A stretch of 64,000 bases of DNA from an uncultured Candidatus Saccharibacteria bacterium (GCA_964372905.1 CAYJQY010000002.1:38796-102795), one strand, 5' to 3'. Counted from the stretch's first letter, positions 44,515 through 51,333 are shown. Made by a program: numbers and translations. Notes: generated by a model from the letters alone, not told the origin.

Positions 44515-47088
44515 TCAAGCTTCCGGCCATGGAGTAATCATCAAAAGCTTTTTTTGATCAAGCATGCCCCAAATTTCTTCAGTCACAAAGGGCATGAAAG
44601 GATGGAGAAGGCGCAGAACACCCTTCAATACGTATTGCAGCCTCTTTTGGGTAAGTTCACTCGTTTCAGGATTTTGCAACAACGCTTTCGACTCTTCTAT
44701 GTGTACATCAGCGAATCTGTGCCAGGTGAATTGGTATATACTTTGGGCTGCTTCATGCAGCCGAAGATTTTCCAAGTGTTCAGTCATATTCTTATTAATC
44801 TGATGTAGTTCAATAATGGCTGTAAAATCAGAATCTGAAAGCAATTGCAGGTCTGTTTCCGGATAAATTTGATCAGAATTGGAGATGATAAAGCGCGCGA
44901 TGTTCCAGAGCTTGTTGGCAAAATGCTTCATGCCGCGGATTTTATCTTCGGACAGGGGAATATCGTTGCCCGCGGCCGTAGAGAAAATTAAGGCGAAGCG
45001 CAGGGCATCGGTGCCGTAGGTATCTATGACGCCGAGCGGATCAACGACATTGCCTTTGGATTTGCTCATTTTTTGGCGATCTTTGTCGCGCACCAGGCCG
45101 TGCAAATACACGGTGCTGAACGGGGCCTTGCCGGTTTTGTAAAAGCCGAACATGATCATGCGCGCCACCCAGAAGAACAAAATGTCCCAGCCGGTTTCCA
45201 TGACCGAAGTAGGGTAGTAGGTGTCCAGGTCTTTTGGCCCGCCGGTCGCCAACAAAGCCGCGTAGGGCCACTGGCCCGAGGAGAACCAGGTGTCAAAGGT
45301 GTCGGGATCTTTTTCTAAATTTTTGCCCCCACATTTGGGGCATTGTTTGGGCGGTTTTTCAGCGATAATAATTTCGCCGCAGCCCGAAGCTGCTTTATTT
45401 ATTTGAGCGAATTCATATTCGTAAACAACAACCGGCGTTGTTTCATCTATAGTTTGTTCGGGATGATGACGCTTGAACGCGGCAATTAGCTGGCCACGCT
45501 TGTCATAGACAGCGCCATGGGCGGGGTCGTTAAGCGGTAACTGTCCCACAGTAGTATGTAATACTTTAGTAATTAAACCATAACCAAAAATTTGTTTGGT
45601 TTGGGTGTTCTCAAACACTATCCTGCTCCCGACTTGAAAATTGTGATCGCGCGTACGATAAGTTTTGGTTTTGCCTGAAAGAACCTGCGGAACGACGCTT
45701 TCATGAAAACCCATTTTCAGGACAGTCCTGTCTGTTGAACTTCCGCAGTACCAGGCCGGAATGGAAATACCCCACCAGATTTGGCGCGAAATGGGCCAGT
45801 CAACAATGTTGTTCATCCAGTTAAAATAAATTTTTTCAAAGTGTCTGGGAATGATTTTTACTGCGCTGTTTTTTACCGCGGCAACGGCCTGGTCGCGCAG
45901 GCTCTGCTGTTTGTTTGTGCCGCCCGGGCCGGCAGATTTTTTAGCCCCGCCATATTCTTTGGTCATGTTCACATACCATTGCGGAATGATTTGCGGTTCA
46001 ATGGGCGTTTTGCATTTGTAGCACACGGACACATTGTGCTTATAATGTGCGTTGGTTTTGTTTTCATCAAGCAAATCCTTGCCGCGCAGCTTCTCCACTA
46101 TTAAAGGCCGCGCCTTTTTGATGTGCTGGCCCGCGAACTCGCCGGCAATGGGCAAGAGTTTCCCGGTTTTATCTATAATTTGTTCCATGTCCAAATTATG
46201 CCGCTGGGCAATTTCAAAGTCAGCCGCGTCGTGCCACGGCGTAATGGTCATCACGCCTGTGCCGAATTCCATATCAATGGAGTCATCTTTGACCACGGTG
46301 GCAGTGATGGGGCCGTTGATCCATTCCAGATCAATTTTTTGCCCGTCTTTGTACTTGGCGTAGCGCTTGTCCTTGGGATGCATGACCACGAATTTGTCGC
46401 CGAACTTGGTTTCCGGCCGGGCCGTGGCAATAGTGAACGGGCCATATTTTAGATAATACAAAATATCCTCGCGCTCCTCGTATTTGGTTTCCAAATCGGA
46501 CAAAGCCGTCTGGTGCTTGGGGCACCAGTTGCAAATTCTATTGCCGCGGTAAATCAAGCCATCATCATACATCTGCTTGAAAGTTTCATAAACAATTTTG
46601 ATGATGCGCCCGTCCAGCGTAAAAATGTTGCGCGACCAGTCGCAGGAAGCGCCCAGGCGCTTGATGCCGTCCTCGGACAGATGCTTATTATCCTGCACAA
46701 AATCCCAGATTTCTTTATAGAAGTCCTCGCGACTCATTGTGAAGCGGCTGCGGCCTTCTTTCTCCAGTTTTTTTTCGAACACGACCTGGGTTTCAAAGCC
46801 CGCGTGGTCCGTGCTGGGCAGCCACAGGGCGCGGCGGCCGCGCATGCGCTGGTAGCGGGTGAGAATATCCTCAATGGTCAAAAACAGCGCGTGGCCGGCG
46901 TGGAGCGGCGCGTTGGCATTGGGCGGCGGCATGATAATAGTGTACGGTTCGCGCTTTTTGCGCTCATCCGCGCCCGGCAGCTTTTTGTAGGCTTTATCGT
47001 CCGGATTAAAATACCCTGAATTCAGCCATTTTTTATAGATGGCTGATTCAACCTTGGAGGCATCGTAGGTTTTTTCGAGTTCGGGCAT
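44515..47088 (-). CDS. valS: Valine--tRNA ligase
   Basis: Class I HIGH region MPPPNANAPLHAGHAL (ValRS-type PPPN), KMSKS, and a Zn-ribbon insertion CPKCGGK. 857 aa. Confidence 0.85.
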   Translation of the reverse strand: MPELEKTYDASKVESAIYKKWLNSGYFNPDDKAYKKLPGADERKKREPYTIIMPPPNANAPLHAGHALFLTIEDILTRYQRMRGRRALWLPSTDHAGFETQVVFEKKLEKEGRSRFTMSREDFYKEIWDFVQDNKHLSEDGIKRLGASCDWSRNIFTLDGRIIKIVYETFKQMYDDGLIYRGNRICNWCPKHQTALSDLETKYEEREDILYYLKYGPFTIATARPETKFGDKFVVMHPKDKRYAKYKDGQKIDLEWINGPITATVVKDDSIDMEFGTGVMTITPWHDAADFEIAQRHNLDMEQIIDKTGKLLPIAGEFAGQHIKKARPLIVEKLRGKDLLDENKTNAHYKHNVSVCYKCKTPIEPQIIPQWYVNMTKEYGGAKKSAGPGGTNKQQSLRDQAVAAVKNSAVKIIPRHFEKIYFNWMNNIVDWPISRQIWWGISIPAWYCGSSTDRTVLKMGFHESVVPQVLSGKTKTYRTRDHNFQVGSRIVFENTQTKQIFGYGLITKVLHTTVGQLPLNDPAHGAVYDKRGQLIAAFKRHHPEQTIDETTPVVVYEYEFAQINKAASGCGEIIIAEKPPKQCPKCGGKNLEKDPDTFDTWFSSGQWPYAALLATGGPKDLDTYYPTSVMETGWDILFFWVARMIMFGFYKTGKAPFSTVYLHGLVRDKDRQKMSKSKGNVVDPLGVIDTYGTDALRFALIFSTAAGNDIPLSEDKIRGMKHFANKLWNIARFIISNSDQIYPETDLQLLSDSDFTAIIELHQINKNMTEHLENLRLHEAAQSIYQFTWHRFADVHIEESKALLQNPETSELTQKRLQYVLKGVLRLLHPFMPFVTEEIWGMLDQKKLLMITPWPEA

Positions 47089-47090
47089 AC

Positions 47091-47915
47091 TTATTCGCTG
47101 GAAATTATCAGTTTTATCTGCTCAAGCAGATTTTTTAGATACTTTAGTTGATTTTGGCGTACCAATTGTTCCTGGCCCTCTTTAATTAATACTTTTGAAA
47201 TAATCTCTCCTTCCGGCTTATCCCCGCGCGTCAGCACTACATCGGTTGCTTTAGCTTCGTCGGTGGGCTCTGCGGGATCAAAAAATTTCATACCATACTG
47301 CTCAATTCCTAATTTACCCCCAGGGTTATAGAGTGCTTGCCATCGCTCCGATTGTTGAGTACGGTCAGGTTCTTTAAGCCGCTTCAAATATCTTGAAGAA
47401 TCATCCATAATTTCCCAAACCATTATTTGATTGAACTTATTTGCCAGAAGCTGCAGTGTACGCAGAAAAACAATATCAATAGGTGTGGCGTATTTTCTAT
47501 TCCGGATTCCTGTAATAATATTTCCTTCAATCTCTGTATAGCCATCTGGTTTTTTCTCGAAAGTTGCTATGCGGTCTCCAAAAATCTCCCCATCTTTATT
47601 TTGCCCTACTATTAGCAAGTATGGTTGAGGGCTAAAATTCGCAAAAATTGGCGTGACCACCACAGGCTCTTGCAGTGAGGTAGCAATATGGTAATGAGGT
47701 CCGATTTGCAGAATTTCAGGATTTCTCTCGCAGACTTCACTGAACATTTCATGGATGTCTGATAATGCGGGCCGGCAGCGATATTCTGGTAATAGCTGAG
47801 GATTAGCCGTCACTCTACGATAGTGAGGCGGTGGTTGGTCTGACGATGCTAAAATTTCAGGACTAGGTATTAATGAATCAGCATCTGATTTGATTGTTTC
47901 AGGTCCGTTTTCCAT
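47091..47915 (-). CDS. Hypothetical protein, low GC, co-transcribed immediately upstream of valS
   Basis: ATG at 47915 (MENGPETIKS). The stop lies 3 bp before the valS start. No recognisable domain. Composition is clearly more AT-rich than its neighbours. Confidence 0.5.
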   Translation of the reverse strand: MENGPETIKSDADSLIPSPEILASSDQPPPHYRRVTANPQLLPEYRCRPALSDIHEMFSEVCERNPEILQIGPHYHIATSLQEPVVVTPIFANFSPQPYLLIVGQNKDGEIFGDRIATFEKKPDGYTEIEGNIITGIRNRKYATPIDIVFLRTLQLLANKFNQIMVWEIMDDSSRYLKRLKEPDRTQQSERWQALYNPGGKLGIEQYGMKFFDPAEPTDEAKATDVVLTRGDKPEGEIISKVLIKEGQEQLVRQNQLKYLKNLLEQIKLIISSE

Positions 47916-47924
47916 GGGGTTTTG

Positions 47925-48207
47925 AAAAATAAAAATAAAAAACACCTAAATCGGTGCTCAAGAGTCCCGCATCCGCCAATCGGCGGAAAAGAGGGACGGT
48001 ACCATCTTGATTTCCATCCGGCTGCGCGGGGCGGCCGGAGAATGGACGCTTGCTTTTGCCGCTGTAACGGGCGGCCCCGGCGGGGTCTACTGGCTACTTG
48101 CAACCGCCTCGAGCGGAGTCAAGGGGTAATAAGCAGTATTCTTCCCGCGCCTTGTTCCGATTTTCGCAGAACGCTCTGGTGACGGCCAGAGCCAAGGCTG
48201 GCTCCCA
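47925..48207 (-). promoter_or_regulatory. T-box riboswitch leader (transcription attenuation) controlling hypothetical gene + valS
   Basis: Minus-strand RNA carries AGUA boxes and F-box CCGUUA (+48065-48070). The T-box AAUCAAGAUGGUACCGUCC (+47994-48013) forms an antiterminator: CAAGA/UCUUG helix, UGGUACC bulge, GUCCC/GGGAC helix. A mutually exclusive terminator GAGCACC-GAUUUA-GGUGUUU with a U-run follows (+47925-47960). Confidence 0.6.
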
Positions 48208-48213
48208 GGTTAG

Positions 48214-48242
48214 ATTATAACACGGCTGTAATTATTTGTAAA
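48214..48242 (-). promoter_or_regulatory. Sigma70 promoter of the T-box leader
   Basis: Minus strand TTTACA-17 nt-TATAAT. The predicted TSS is near +48207. Confidence 0.6.
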
Positions 48243-48254
48243 TTAGTTTTTAGT

Positions 48255-48292
48255 GCTTGATCTTTCCGACTGCTTGCTGGTCGGAGGATCAT
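48255..48292. repeat. ~40-bp repeat element, copy 1 (GCTTGATCTTTCCGAC-N-GCTTGCTGG...)
   Basis: Shares 16 + 9 identical bases with 51449..51487. It lies just upstream of the -35 of the minus-strand T-box promoter. Confidence 0.6.
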
Positions 48293-48613
48293 TTACCCGG
48301 CCAGTTCTTTTGCATTATCAGCCGCTGTCCTCGGGCTGGAGGGTGCGGCTTCTTCATCCGCCCTATTTGCATGAAGAGATTGAGCGTGATCAGCTTCGGC
48401 CCTGTTTATTATTGACTGACGAACATCTGGATCTTCATACTCCCCATCAGGCTTGTTGCCTGGCCCGATTGAGAATTTCGGAGATTTATCGGCAACAGTT
48501 GTCTTGGTCGCATCTCTTTGATTTTTTCCTGATGTTCCCGAGACTTGGAATTCTCCACTTTTCCCTGAAGGCTCTTCCGAAATTTTAAACTCCCTACCTC
48601 TTCTTTCTCTCAT
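48293..48613 (-). CDS. Possible small acidic low-complexity protein translationally coupled to tsaD (ATGA overlap)
   Basis: The ATG at 48613 overlaps the tsaD TGA. 106 aa, hydrophilic (MRERRGREFKISEEPSGK...). It competes with a + strand ORF at 48253..48588 whose TTG start lies in the repeat. Confidence 0.3.
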   Translation of the reverse strand: MRERRGREFKISEEPSGKSGEFQVSGTSGKNQRDATKTTVADKSPKFSIGPGNKPDGEYEDPDVRQSIINRAEADHAQSLHANRADEEAAPSSPRTAADNAKELAG

Positions 48614-49785
48614 ACATTTACATTTAATTCCCAACCTGAATTAGCCCGGACTTTATTAAAGTATACAGGTTTAAATTTGCCGCGCAAGCGGAAACAGGCG
48701 GCTAGGGCGATCATGGCGGCGTTGTCGGTGCAGAGTTTCAGTGACGGGACCAAAAATTGGAGATGATGCTGGCGCGCGGCGCTTGCCAAATCGCGCCGCA
48801 GTTTTTTATTGGCGGCCACTCCGCCGGACAGCGAAACAGTCTTGGCTTTGCATTCTTTGGCGGCGCGTAAGGTTTTGGCGACCAAAGTGTCAATAACAGC
48901 CTGCTGGAATGACGCGGCGATATCGGCTTTTTGCCGGACGGAAATTTTTTTGTTAGCAGCGCGCTTGCCGGCACCATGTTTGCCATTGCCGCGGATTTGA
49001 TCTCGCATATAATACAGCACCGCCGTCTTCAATCCGGAAAAAGAAAAATCGTAATTTTTAGAGTTGATCATTGGCCGCGGAAATTGGATTGATGGTTTGC
49101 CACACAGAGCCAGCTTGCTGATCTCCGGCCCGCCGGGATAGGGCAGCCCCAGCAGCCGGGCAACTTTGTCAAACGCTTCGCCAGCCGCATCATCTAAAGT
49201 TTGTCCGAGCACTTCAAAATTTTGGTAGTCGTGCATCAATATCAGCATAGTGTGGCCGCCGCTGGCCAGAAGGGCTACGAGAGGAAATTTTACGTTGAAT
49301 GGCTGGCGCAGACTGCCAAAAATCGAATATAAATGCCCAGCCATGTGATTGACCGGGATCATAGTTTTTTTGTTGGCCATGGCCAAAGTTTTGGCGAATT
49401 CAACTCCGACGATAAGCGAAACAATGAGGCCCGGGCCTGCGGTCACGGCAATGTGGTCAAGCTCGGCCAATTTCACGCCCGCCCGCTTGAGCGTTTCGCG
49501 GGTAACCGGTGCCATAGCGGCAACATGCGCCCGTGCCGCGACTTCCGGAATCACCCCGCCGCTTTTTTTGTGGAGCAAAATCTGCGAGCGCACCACGGAG
49601 GATAAGATTTGGAAATTAGGATGAATGCCCGCGCCGCCGCGGAGGGCTACGCGACCGCCGCGGCGCAAATCAGCGCGCACATCCCCGCGCAACACCGCGG
49701 CCGCGGTTTCATCGCAACTGGATTCAATTGCTAAAATGGTTATATTTTTTTGACCAGCCGTGACTTTTGCCATGCTGTTATTCAA
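48610..49785 (-). CDS. tsaD: tRNA N6-adenosine threonylcarbamoyltransferase TsaD (Kae1/YgjD)
   Basis: ILAIESSCDETAAAV and metal-binding HMAGH. An approximately 20-aa Arg/Gly-rich insertion (DVRADLRRGGRVALRGGAGIHPNF) follows the N-terminal motif. Confidence 0.9.
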   Translation of the reverse strand: MNNSMAKVTAGQKNITILAIESSCDETAAAVLRGDVRADLRRGGRVALRGGAGIHPNFQILSSVVRSQILLHKKSGGVIPEVAARAHVAAMAPVTRETLKRAGVKLAELDHIAVTAGPGLIVSLIVGVEFAKTLAMANKKTMIPVNHMAGHLYSIFGSLRQPFNVKFPLVALLASGGHTMLILMHDYQNFEVLGQTLDDAAGEAFDKVARLLGLPYPGGPEISKLALCGKPSIQFPRPMINSKNYDFSFSGLKTAVLYYMRDQIRGNGKHGAGKRAANKKISVRQKADIAASFQQAVIDTLVAKTLRAAKECKAKTVSLSGGVAANKKLRRDLASAARQHHLQFLVPSLKLCTDNAAMIALAACFRLRGKFKPVYFNKVRANSGWELNVNV

Positions 49786-49803: not shown

Positions 49804-50100
49804 TCATGAGATGTCCCCTTCGGCAAGTACCATCGTGATACCACTAGTGCAAGCAGGCTGATAATAATGCTGGCAATCCAAATTGGGTGGAGGAAGGAAA
49901 GCATCTACCGGAGCGCCTTGTTCCAGGGTCTTGACCACTTCTTGGGTCAGTTCAATCTGCGGGTCATTGGCCGATTGCCGGTAGATTTGCTGAACCGTAA
50001 CGTAAATGGTGCCGAAGATTATAGTTAAAATGGCCGCGCTAAGCAGCCAGATCAAACTTGATTTTAACGCGGTGCCGAGGTTGTGGTGCATTATTATCAA
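49804..50100 (-). CDS. Small membrane protein, hypothetical
   Basis: 98 aa with one N-terminal TM (SSLIWLLSAAILTIIFGTIYV). Directly upstream of tsaD on the same strand. Confidence 0.4.
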   Translation of the reverse strand: MIIMHHNLGTALKSSLIWLLSAAILTIIFGTIYVTVQQIYRQSANDPQIELTQEVVKTLEQGAPVDAFLPPPNLDCQHYYQPACTSGITMVLAEGDIS

Positions 50101-50163: not shown

Positions 50164-51207
50164 TTAGGGATTGAGCGCGCTGTATTGACCGCGAGATTGC
50201 ACGATGCTTTTGATTTGCAGGCCTTGATCAAAGTTATTGGCGGTAACCATATCACTGGCCTTAATGCCCCAAGAGTTCATATCTGACAAGTTTGAAAAGC
50301 ATCGCCTGCCCGGAGTACCTTGTGCCCTAAAAACGCTTTCAATGATGCAAATGGTTCCGCGGTCATTAATTACCGTGCCGCTGGAATGAGCCATCTGGCT
50401 AGTATTGATTGGCGTTAGTGTTGTCAAAAATGAGGTGTCGCCATCAAGCACATCGGCAAACGAATATCCCAGCCCCAAAAATACTTCGGCAGAAGTGAAT
50501 CCGACCCGATAGCCGTCGCTAATAATGTAGACGGTTCCGTGATCCTTAATAAGCGAGCCGTCGCGGGGAGGGATAAAGGCAACGCCGCCTGTTCCAGCGG
50601 ATCCTATCGGCAAAGCCAGATCGTATGAATTAGCCGGGACTACTCCGGCCCAGGTATTGTAGCCGTAGGACAGAAATGCTCCGGCAGACGTGTATGGCTG
50701 GCGTGCACCAAGGATGATCCGGTAAATCGTGCCGCCGGAAGTTAAAATATTAGTGCCGTCAGGATGGGCTTGGTTACCGGGCAAGGGTGTTCCGGCCGGA
50801 GCGACGGTTAAGGTAATCGGGAACACAAGCGCTGCGCCTGCAAAATTACCGCGAATGTATATCGCGGTGGTGTATGTGCCAACGGCCAGGTTGGTTACGT
50901 CAGCGCTGGCGCCAATGCCGCTTGGCGAACCAGGATACGCCGGTAATGTATCCGTTGCGTATCCGGTATTGAGCCAATGCGGTTGGTTCGGCACATCAAT
51001 CGTATAATAGATGATGCTATCCGTGTCGTTGGTAAATGTGACAGACTGGGGTGAGGGCAAACCGCCGCCTTGAGCATAGAAAAAATTAAACGAACTTTGC
51101 GATACTGAAAAAGGAGAAGATGAAGCAGCTGCGAGTGCTATTCCCGCCGAACCGATGAGATAAGCCAACAGGAACAGGGCCAGAATCGGTAGGAATAATT
51201 TTTTCAT
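50164..51207 (-). CDS. Secreted protein with signal peptide and three internal ~30-aa repeats
   Basis: Signal peptide MKKLFLPILALFLLAYLIGSAGIALA. Repeats of the form GGTIYRIILGARQPYTSAGAFLSYGY, HGTVYIISDGYRVGFTSAEVFLGLGY and RGTICIIESVFRAQG. Confidence 0.55.
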   Translation of the reverse strand: MKKLFLPILALFLLAYLIGSAGIALAAASSSPFSVSQSSFNFFYAQGGGLPSPQSVTFTNDTDSIIYYTIDVPNQPHWLNTGYATDTLPAYPGSPSGIGASADVTNLAVGTYTTAIYIRGNFAGAALVFPITLTVAPAGTPLPGNQAHPDGTNILTSGGTIYRIILGARQPYTSAGAFLSYGYNTWAGVVPANSYDLALPIGSAGTGGVAFIPPRDGSLIKDHGTVYIISDGYRVGFTSAEVFLGLGYSFADVLDGDTSFLTTLTPINTSQMAHSSGTVINDRGTICIIESVFRAQGTPGRRCFSNLSDMNSWGIKASDMVTANNFDQGLQIKSIVQSRGQYSALNP

Positions 51208-51258: not shown

Positions 51259-51333
51259 TGGTAGCCCATGGGGGAATCGAACCCCCGTTACCTGGCTGAA
51301 AACCAGATGTCCTAACCACTAGACGAATGGGCC
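51259..51333 (-). tRNA. tRNA-Glu (anticodon UUC), CCA encoded
   Basis: Manual fold: acceptor GGCCCAT/ATGGGCT (G1-U72), D-arm GTCT/GGAC with loop AGTGGTTA, anticodon stem TCTGG/CCAGG with loop TTTTCAG (UUC), T-arm GGGGG-TTCGATT-CCCCC, discriminator A, then CCA. Confidence 0.85.

Follow-up and report, generated by a model that had tools for sequence, protein, structure and literature searches.

A tRNA-Val T-box leader of reduced architecture that probably governs a cargo gene and valS in a Candidatus Saccharibacteria bacterium

Actinobacterial ileS T-boxes with a short or ultrashort Stem I were reportedly described by Sherwood, Grundy and Henkin in 2015. In these actinobacterial riboswitches the specifier lies in Stem I's apical loop, both Stem II and IIA/B are essential, and insertions in the antiterminator helix A2 are frequent (PMC7583486, PMC10651847); on the current view transcriptional T-boxes must have the long Stem I that docks the elbow in order to catch tRNA quickly enough, a short one being tolerated only in translational switches, which operate without a time limit (PMC7583486, PMC11297988). 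Here we analyse a leader of comparable build in a stretch of 64,000 nucleotides (nt) from an uncultured Candidatus Saccharibacteria bacterium (GCA_964372905.1, CAYJQY010000002.1:38796-102795), henceforth the window. We hold it very probable that the minus-strand leader at 48207-47925 is a tRNA-Val-specific T-box riboswitch of reduced architecture, which attenuates transcription ahead of an open reading frame (ORF) of 274 amino acids (aa) and the valyl-tRNA synthetase (ValRS) gene valS, with the 274-aa ORF being its cargo. The original prediction, made by a model from the sequence alone, had placed a T-box leader in control of this operon: the T-box, the 274-aa ORF as the first gene and valS as the second all stand, whereas the canonical model and the canonical Stem I do not. 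The elements concerned, all on the minus strand, are listed below (bp, base pairs; MFE, minimum free energy).

48214..48242, minus strand: sigma-70-type promoter, TTTACA 48242-48237, 17-nt spacer with TG, TATAAT 48219-48214
48207-47925, minus strand: candidate T-box leader, about 280 nt
48149..48198, minus strand: putative closing helix P0, GCCUU 48198-48194 with AAGGC 48153-48149, from the MFE fold
48173..48192, minus strand: short Stem I hairpin of 7 bp, GCUCUGG-CCGUCA-CCAGAGC
48080..48148, minus strand: Stem II, basal helix GCGGG 48148-48144 with CCCGC 48084-48080
48058..48079, minus strand: Stem IIA, F-box and IIB pseudoknot; IIA is CGG 48079-48077 with CCG 48070-48068
48013..48046, minus strand: Stem III, UCCAU-UCU-CCGGC ... 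GCCGG-AUGGA, from the MFE fold
47958..48010, minus strand: discriminator/antiterminator, comprising helix A1, the T-box bulge and helix A2
47925..47959, minus strand: intrinsic terminator, hairpin GAGCACC-GAUUUA-GGUGUUU 47959-47940, then the U-tract UUUAUUUUUAUUUUU 47939-47925
47091..47915, minus strand: 274-aa ORF, the first gene 3' of the leader
44515..47088, minus strand: valS, 857 aa, Pfam tRNA-synt_1 and Anticodon_1, starting 2 nt past the stop of the 274-aa ORF

The gap ahead of the 274-aa ORF had been described as GC-rich and structured, which is borne out by a leader GC of 0.57 and a fold better than that of shuffled copies (z = -3.0, with one of 200 shuffles equally good). The near-consensus promoter claimed for it is likewise present at 48242..48214: TTTACA-17-TATAAT matches at 11 of 12 positions, has a TG extension and is the sole such site on the minus strand within 46500-49000. 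Hexamers resembling it precede Stem I at the equivalent place in L002, L124 and L126 (the loci used for comparison are designated by L and a number). Transcription is predicted to start near 48207, about 59 nt before Stem II, an interval taken up by P0, a 20-nt hairpin and a 19-nt hairpin. Inside P0 are Stem I and a further hairpin, GUUCUG-CGAAAAU-CGGAAC (48172-48154), the latter occurring in some relatives only; a 3-bp counterpart of P0 (GCY...RGC) is seen in L002, L112, L124, L126, L127 and L117.

The valine codon GUC occupies 48183-48181 in the apical loop CCGUCA of Stem I and is followed by a conserved purine, A48180. Its earlier listing as a candidate specifier is supported by conservation and by the agreement of codon and gene in the relatives. 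The other candidate put forward at the time, GUA followed by G, drops out: it falls within the AGUAGA of the S-turn, a motif that does not vary between Ile, Asp and Val leaders and hence cannot be the specifier. In Stem II the S-turn/loop-E is formed by AAGAA (48143-48139) opposite AGUAGAC (48091-48085), the AGUA boxes lying here and just upstream, with a long distal extension beyond (48138-48092); AAGAA and UAGA are nearly invariant among the relatives. The F-box CCGUUA is at 48070-48065 (GCCCGUUA being the F-box at Stem IIA), and the IIB pseudoknot pairs the loop GCCGC (48075-48071) with GCGGC (48062-48058). A hairpin at the position of Stem III, variable in length and sequence, stands 2-4 nt before helix A1 in every relative. 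A1 consists of UCAAGA (48010-48005) with UCUUGA (47963-47958), the T-box sequence AAUCAAGAUGGUACCGUCC provides the 7-nt bulge UGGUACC (48004-47998), and A2 pairs GUCCC (47997-47993) with GGGAC (47968-47964) around an inserted 24-nt hairpin (47992-47969). The AGUA boxes, F-box, T-box and bulge are all where the original prediction had them on the minus strand, as are both antiterminator helices. The T-box sequence is conserved and is predicted to form a bulged antiterminator, in which UGGN would be placed for the NCCA end of a tRNA.

Inspection of the leader revealed no canonical long Stem I, that is, no AG bulge, AGAGA, distal-loop motif or internal specifier loop. What takes its place is a short, covarying Stem I with an apical-loop specifier, followed by the Stem II S-turn, IIA/B, Stem III and the discriminator, and by the published definition (PMC7583486) the leader is one of short Stem I with Stem II and IIA/B retained. 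The window copy carries three private insertions: one hairpin behind Stem I, another within A2, and the long distal extension of Stem II. Two mechanically called ORFs, of 77 aa (47870-48103, minus strand) and 86 aa (47922-48182, plus strand), lie wholly inside the leader RNA and are best regarded as spurious.

A homologous leader that can be aligned with that of the window precedes valS in L002, the closest genome. Its hairpin loop is again CCGUCA, though the stem differs, and it also has UAGACC, GCCCGUUA, GAGAUGGUACCGCCC...GGGCUCUCAA and a hairpin with a U-tract. From four valS leaders we derived the search pattern TAGA-N6-CGG-N4-5-GCCCGT-N45-75-TGGNACCGYCC, which takes in Stem IIA, the T-box and, of Stem II, the 3' side, but neither Stem I nor the downstream gene. 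It retrieved 81 metagenome stretches against a chance expectation, roughly estimated, of a handful. The downstream genes, named by NCBIfam models and tblastn, encode isoleucyl-tRNA synthetase (IleRS, 50 loci), ValRS, archaeal-type non-discriminating aspartyl-tRNA synthetase (AspRS) and, once, a bacterial AspRS. In a short hairpin upstream of Stem II, a codon-agnostic hairpin census with cross-class controls placed GUC plus A at the 3' end of the apical loop in eight of nine ValRS leaders (the contig of the ninth is cut), AUC plus A at the same place in 44 of 50 IleRS leaders, and GAC plus A likewise there in six of eight archaeal-type AspRS leaders; cross-class codon matches were few and located elsewhere. 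Were the leaders independent, perfect concordance of the 58 assigned codons would have about 1 chance in 10^16; related leaders, however, are not independent. At position N of UGGN the Val leaders have U and all Asp leaders C; the U of UGGU fits A73 in tRNA-Val, and the C of UGGC fits G73 in tRNA-Asp.

A covariance model (R1), for which 42 leaders served as the seed, reaches further. Outside its seed it finds L005 at 63.8 bits and, on a Pacebacteria contig, L163:318-421 (E = 4.5e-6), a leader with the loop CCAGCCC (containing AGC, serine) and UGGC, followed by a NUDIX gene and then the seryl-tRNA synthetase (SerRS) gene serS. Across the window and its relatives the specifier agrees with the synthetase: GUC with ValRS, AUC with IleRS, GAC with AspRS and AGC with SerRS. 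R1 also matches canonical Firmicutes valS T-boxes at the right positions (L052, 32 bits; L067, 29 bits), and its matches in L044 and L046 overlap those of the Rfam T-box model RF00230. One IleRS of the pattern set is annotated as Candidatus Saccharimonadales. Judging from these sequences, leaders of the same design but with different codons stand ahead of ileS, aspS and serS on contigs from Saccharibacteria-like and other Patescibacteria.

The pattern set also holds some departures. The leader before the bacterial-type AspRS of 605 aa (L147:462-608) has the apical loop CAAACA, in which AAC (asparagine) is followed by A, and UGGU; in this single case a non-discriminating AspRS may be regulated by tRNA-Asn. 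A subclade of ileS leaders lacks U at the last position of UGGN, with UGGC in L087, L103, L114, L121 and L162, UGGA in L084, L130 and L148 and UGGG in L141, which is unexpected if tRNA-Ile carries A73. The matches in L092 and L095 are canonical long Stem I leaders with an AGAGA bulge, a GGUGGAA distal loop and the specifier GUC, and each has another T-box-like sequence, GGUGGUACCGCG, some 70-90 nt further downstream than the matched UGGNACC. Those in L109, L143, L149 and L152 look like chance occurrences in GC-rich coding DNA.

Covariation was scored on the 42-leader alignment, in which the cores from Stem I to the antiterminator of the relatives measure 129-250 nt, for the Stem II base, IIA, the IIB pseudoknot, A1 and A2. 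Paired cells amount to 93.7% against 77.0% in shuffles (none of 500 shuffles being as high), double-change cells number 190 against 60.6, and sliding the partners by 1-3 columns leaves only 24-47% paired. The Stem II base has changes on both sides at all five pairs with 91.9% of cells paired; IIA is invariant; IIB shows double changes at three of five pairs (e.g. ACUGC:GUAGU in L002, AUUGC:GCAAU in L112 and L124); A1 shows them at five of six pairs with 98.8% of cells paired, a value shared by A2. When given nothing but the seven valS leaders nearest to the window's, RNAalifold independently recovers Stem I, the Stem II base, IIB, A1 and A2, with compensatory changes in 17 of 27 pairs. Among these seven clade members all 7 pairs of Stem I show compensatory changes around an invariant GUCA; AAGAA/AGUAGA, GCCCGU and UGGUACC are the other segments invariant among close relatives.

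The leader ends in the terminator that had been predicted, GAGCACC-GAUUUA-GGUGUUU with its U-tract, leaving 9 nt to the ATG at 47915 where about 10 had been given. The accompanying claim that this terminator shares the 3' strand of the antiterminator holds for the last 2 nt and fails for the strand as a whole, as only G47959 and A47958 (GA) are common to the terminator and the 3' strand of A1. This 2-nt overlap (GA or AA) between the 5' strand of the terminator and A1 is kept in the window and its six closest relatives, and the hairpin is kept with changed sequence in L002, L112, L124, L126, L127 and L117 (CACC/GGUG, CACUC/GAGUG, CACUCC/GGAGUG). In the more distant Val leaders L005, L008 and L111 terminator and antiterminator overlap fully. 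A U-run occurs within 55 nt after A1 in 60 of 70 leaders as against 116 of 1400 controls (8%), an indication of transcription attenuation. We found no Shine-Dalgarno-like sequence close to the ATG at 47915; the AGGUG of the hairpin is 27 nt upstream of it, and the start region has no pairing partner. The leader has neither a Shine-Dalgarno sequence nor a sequestrator of the class II T-box kind at the start codon, and has a hairpin and U-tract instead.

Ile-type leaders have a different platform. In L090, L102, L107, L100, L144, L135 and about 40 others (e.g. L090:1797-1947 plus 45 nt downstream), the 3' half of Stem III and the linker (e.g. GUCAUCUCUUUUGGAA) are complementary to the stretch immediately preceding the U-run (UUCUAAAAGAGGUGAU). 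The longest helices so formed average 9.4 bp against 5.4 +/- 1.4 in shuffles, extend to 16 bp and covary. Such a terminator would have the entire antiterminator inside it, and its competitor would be Stem III, not A1. An Ile-like long-range terminator is ruled out in the window, where the only match is the 5-bp AAAUC/GAUUU, situated in the loop of the local hairpin.

For the window leader we envisage the following course of events. The anticodon GAC of tRNA-Val would pair with GUC in the apical loop of the 7-bp Stem I, and Stem II (with its AGUA/GAA S-turn) and IIA/B would adjoin Stem I and reinforce the codon-anticodon helix in place of an elbow platform, as they do in the actinobacterial ileS T-box of solved structure. 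UGGU in the antiterminator bulge would then pair with the free ACCA end of an uncharged tRNA, which would lock A1 and withhold GA from the basal pairs of the weak terminator beside the U-tract, so that read-through by RNA polymerase could reach the 274-aa ORF and valS. If the tRNA were charged, or absent, A1 would fray, the 7-bp hairpin would be completed and transcription would stop at the U-tract. For a terminator near threshold the basal pairs next to the U-tract would decide termination, and the locking of A1 could suffice.

The first gene had been described as AT-rich and without a recognisable domain, and so it is: the 274-aa ORF has a GC of 0.416 and no Pfam match, nor were any of the NCBIfam and defence-system models significant for its family. 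Its GC at third codon positions (GC3) is 0.349, against 0.587 in valS and 0.577 in tsaD, with neighbours at 0.51-0.59, which suggests recent acquisition. A look for insertion scars in the form of direct or inverted repeats flanking the ORF gave nothing meaningful. The start context of the ORF, CAAAACCCCAUG, resembles the valS start context, UAAAACCUAUG, of the sister locus L126. The ORF is a real gene and not a spurious one, with 62 distant relatives of about 260-280 aa recovered by an exhaustive HMMER search. No relative turned up in a search of species genomes; a word-indexed protein search returned the ORF itself only, and a family-profile search of the indexed proteins only three proteins, with one further genomic context readable. 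The family alignment displays the motifs FGPxY..TS, G.I.T..RGxGxA and EQxRWqaLYGxxGKLG; where the family has RGxGxA, the putative loop binding coenzyme A (CoA), the window protein reads RNRKYA.

Structure prediction yields a confident AlphaFold2 model with a GNAT-like core (predicted local distance difference test, pLDDT, 88.9; predicted template modelling score, pTM, 0.86), but the matches to known GNAT structures are weak. Among the Foldseek matches listed, most are GNAT acetyltransferases (probability up to 0.99, E at least 2e-3, template modelling (TM) scores 0.22-0.39); Pfam GNAT models weakly match 2-3 of 40 family members, and the best profile match in the PDB is Naa30, across motif A, with E = 0.13. 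Like GNATs, the protein has a predicted alpha/beta core, weakly matching GCN5, Rv0998/PatA, TacT, AtaT and NatA-type structures, and its family has the R-G-x-G-x-A loop between strand and helix at the position of GNAT motif A; it differs from them in its greater length, having an extended N-terminus and a long helix at the C-terminus. The model suggests a protein that is GNAT-like but divergent, from an uncharacterised family.

What lies between leader and synthetase gene differs from locus to locus, and often it is an extra gene. Among relatives this slot is empty in L126 and L158, and elsewhere holds a NUDIX gene (L002:3526-3936), an NAD(P)HX dehydratase (L127:1294-2154 and L124) or small ORFs of unknown kind (L112). 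Before ileS it holds canonical GNATs (PF00583) in L114:567-1118, L130:4422-4970, L141:1206-1772 and L123:4749-5303, a cupin in L105:1059-1406 and an EcoRI-type adenine methylase in L135:4219-5385, GNATs being the most recurrent cargo. NCBIfam includes a model for an IleRS fused to a GNAT domain (NF040702). In L163 (genes to 5816) a T-box leader, a NUDIX gene, serS and secA are followed on the same strand, after a 6-nt gap from secA, by P0063, a 271-aa homologue of the window protein. Contents so variable favour a slot for cargo over a partner specific to valine. The valine- or tRNA-Val-related function once suggested for the 274-aa ORF finds no support, given the unrelated genes in the slot of relatives and the foreign composition of the ORF. 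We propose that it is a horizontally acquired GNAT-like cargo, which would be co-regulated by position.

Several observations weigh against a transcription-attenuating T-box at this locus. Transcriptional T-boxes generally need a long, elbow-binding Stem I for kinetic reasons (PMC7583486; the 2024 paper PMC11297988), and at the base of Stem I we could not identify a K-turn. The MFE fold from ViennaRNA has A1 intact beside a 5-bp hairpin, so that both coexist, and the full 7-bp hairpin and the truncated 5-bp form, at -8.4 and -6.5 kcal/mol, are about 2 kcal/mol apart; with only 2 nt shared and both elements in the MFE fold, no clean two-state switch is evident from secondary structure. No tRNA-Val gene is present in the 64-kb window, whose sole tRNA gene is a tRNA-Glu (UUC) at 51259-51333 on the minus strand. 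Finally, RF00230, the model by which the original prediction proposed to check the leader, gives no match in the window at its gathering score (93 bits), nor at E<=10 on 47800-48400.

The Rfam result reflects divergence rather than absence, because the control works and relatives give sub-threshold matches. Five Firmicutes valS loci score 100-117 bits, and none of 18 valS loci, mostly affiliated with the candidate phyla radiation (CPR), reaches the threshold. With relaxed settings L008 (28.5 bits) and L005 (22.9 bits) are matched precisely upstream of valS, the relatives altogether scoring 22.9-42.1 bits and six of 20 loci 28-42 bits. L126, the sister of the window copy, scores 28.5 bits (E = 0.022), and the three private insertions are probably why the window scores lower still. 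If the gathering score is taken to define a T-box, the window falls outside the definition, an outcome that is uninformative rather than refuting.

The end of the leader could be read otherwise. It is distinctly improbable, in our judgement, that this is a translational T-box in which tRNA binding controls access of the ribosome to the first ORF and the hairpin and U-tract are incidental or secondary. The published short and ultrashort Stem I T-boxes are translational, often with A2 insertions as here (PMC7583486, PMC11297988), the 3' strand of the L111 terminator, AAGGAC, lies 9-10 nt ahead of the valS ATG and resembles a Shine-Dalgarno sequence, and the small overlap of terminator and antiterminator fits attenuation poorly. 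However, the start region at 47915 lacks both a Shine-Dalgarno-like sequence and a pairing partner, the hairpin is followed by 15 nt that are mostly U, the signature of an intrinsic terminator, U-runs are about tenfold enriched after A1 across the family, and the covarying Ile-type helices, which are as long as 16 bp, stop precisely at the U-run. The same sharing of a mere 2 nt by helices that coexist in the predicted MFE fold, along with the silence of RF00230 on the window and the three lineage-specific insertions of its copy, would also suit a decayed, non-regulatory relic, in which a T-box-derived 5' untranslated region with a constitutive partial terminator has lost tRNA switching. Against this, compensatory changes keep Stem I, Stem II, IIB, A1 and A2 among close relatives while the key motifs stay invariant, both specifier and discriminator base follow the identity of the downstream gene, four amino acids being represented, and the 2-nt overlap is itself kept in all seven clade members; such selection is not expected on a relic, and we deem this account highly improbable.

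A further alternative concerns the cargo and seems fairly unlikely to us: the 274-aa protein might be tied functionally to the synthetase/tRNA system, for instance as an acyltransferase whose substrates would be aminoacyl-adenylate analogues, aminoacyl-tRNA or the synthetase itself, and which would be induced when charging fails. GNATs such as MccE and RimL detoxify aminoacyl-adenylate mimics. A tie of this sort would accord with the GNAT-like core of the protein, with the placement of P0063, the only other readable family context, in a Pacebacteria cluster of T-box, NUDIX, serS and secA, and with the canonical GNATs between leader and ileS in four loci together with the IleRS-GNAT fusion model NF040702. 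However, just two contexts were examined, the slot is also occupied by NUDIX, NAD(P)HX dehydratase, cupin, EcoRI-type methylase or small ORFs, or by nothing, the composition of the gene is foreign, RNRKYA replaces RGxGxA, and the GNAT matches are weak by structure (E at least 2e-3, TM 0.22-0.39) and by profile (E 0.13) alike.

The wider locus is in keeping with a Patescibacteria source. The window ValRS shares 64% identity with its counterpart in a Candidatus Saccharibacteria metagenome-assembled genome (L002), the next-best matches, all below 50% identity, being other CPR and Clostridia sequences, and the sequence places the source organism in the Patescibacteria (CPR). With 2 nt between them, the 274-aa ORF and valS would be co-transcribed; a gene for an MFS transporter is next after valS on the minus strand. 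Upstream of the leader are the following.

48293-48634, minus strand: 113-aa ORF, overlapping the end of tsaD by 25 nt, without a Pfam match
48610-49785, minus strand: tsaD

Further upstream on the minus strand are ORFs of 98 aa (49804-50100) and 347 aa (50164-51207), both without a Pfam match.

Short-Stem-I T-boxes ending in a terminator seem common in Saccharibacteria-like bacteria. We put forward, as a tentative generalisation that may well prove too broad, that Saccharibacteria and other Patescibacteria possess an undescribed lineage of transcription-attenuating T-boxes without an elbow platform, lying below the Rfam threshold and serving at least ileS, valS, aspS and serS. Their expression platforms would be unusual (at valS a 2-nt overlap with a near-threshold terminator, at ileS a Stem III terminator that encloses the antiterminator), and they would act as landing pads that place cargo, including GNATs and the 274-aa family, under the control of tRNA charging. 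Our search found no literature linking T-boxes with Patescibacteria, CPR or Saccharibacteria, key subscription papers being outside its reach. As homology searches at curated thresholds miss Patescibacteria T-boxes, the regulatory annotation of these reduced genomes is incomplete. The combination of an apical-loop specifier with intrinsic terminators across four amino acids in compact leaders offers a natural test of the kinetic argument, and a slot between leader and synthetase that gathers foreign genes is a handle on how cargo, GNAT-like proteins included, comes under amino-acid-starvation control.

Two known systems frame this leader. With the canonical RF00230 T-box, as represented by the Firmicutes valS loci L044, L046, L074, L027 and L071, it has in common the T-box, the bulged antiterminator, the F-box, the AGUA/GAA S-turn, the GUC specifier and a terminator with U-tract, and the two cores are mutually detectable below threshold. 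It differs in lacking the long Stem I, internal specifier loop, AG bulge and distal loop, and in a terminator that uses 2 nt of the antiterminator 3' strand where the canonical one uses the whole strand. The actinobacterial ileS T-boxes with short Stem I ('class II' in TBDB), among them those of the Mycobacterium ileS structures, compared here by their published description, are alike in the apical-loop specifier followed by a purine, the lack of an elbow platform, the retained Stem II S-turn and IIA/B, the UGGN discriminator bulge and the A2 insertion (PMC7583486, PMC10651847). Theirs is, however, a translational switch that works through Shine-Dalgarno sequestration, whereas the window leader ends in a hairpin and U-tract; and theirs has been described for ileS, mostly in Actinobacteria, whereas the present leader stands before valS, with relatives at ileS, aspS and serS, in Saccharibacteria-like Patescibacteria.

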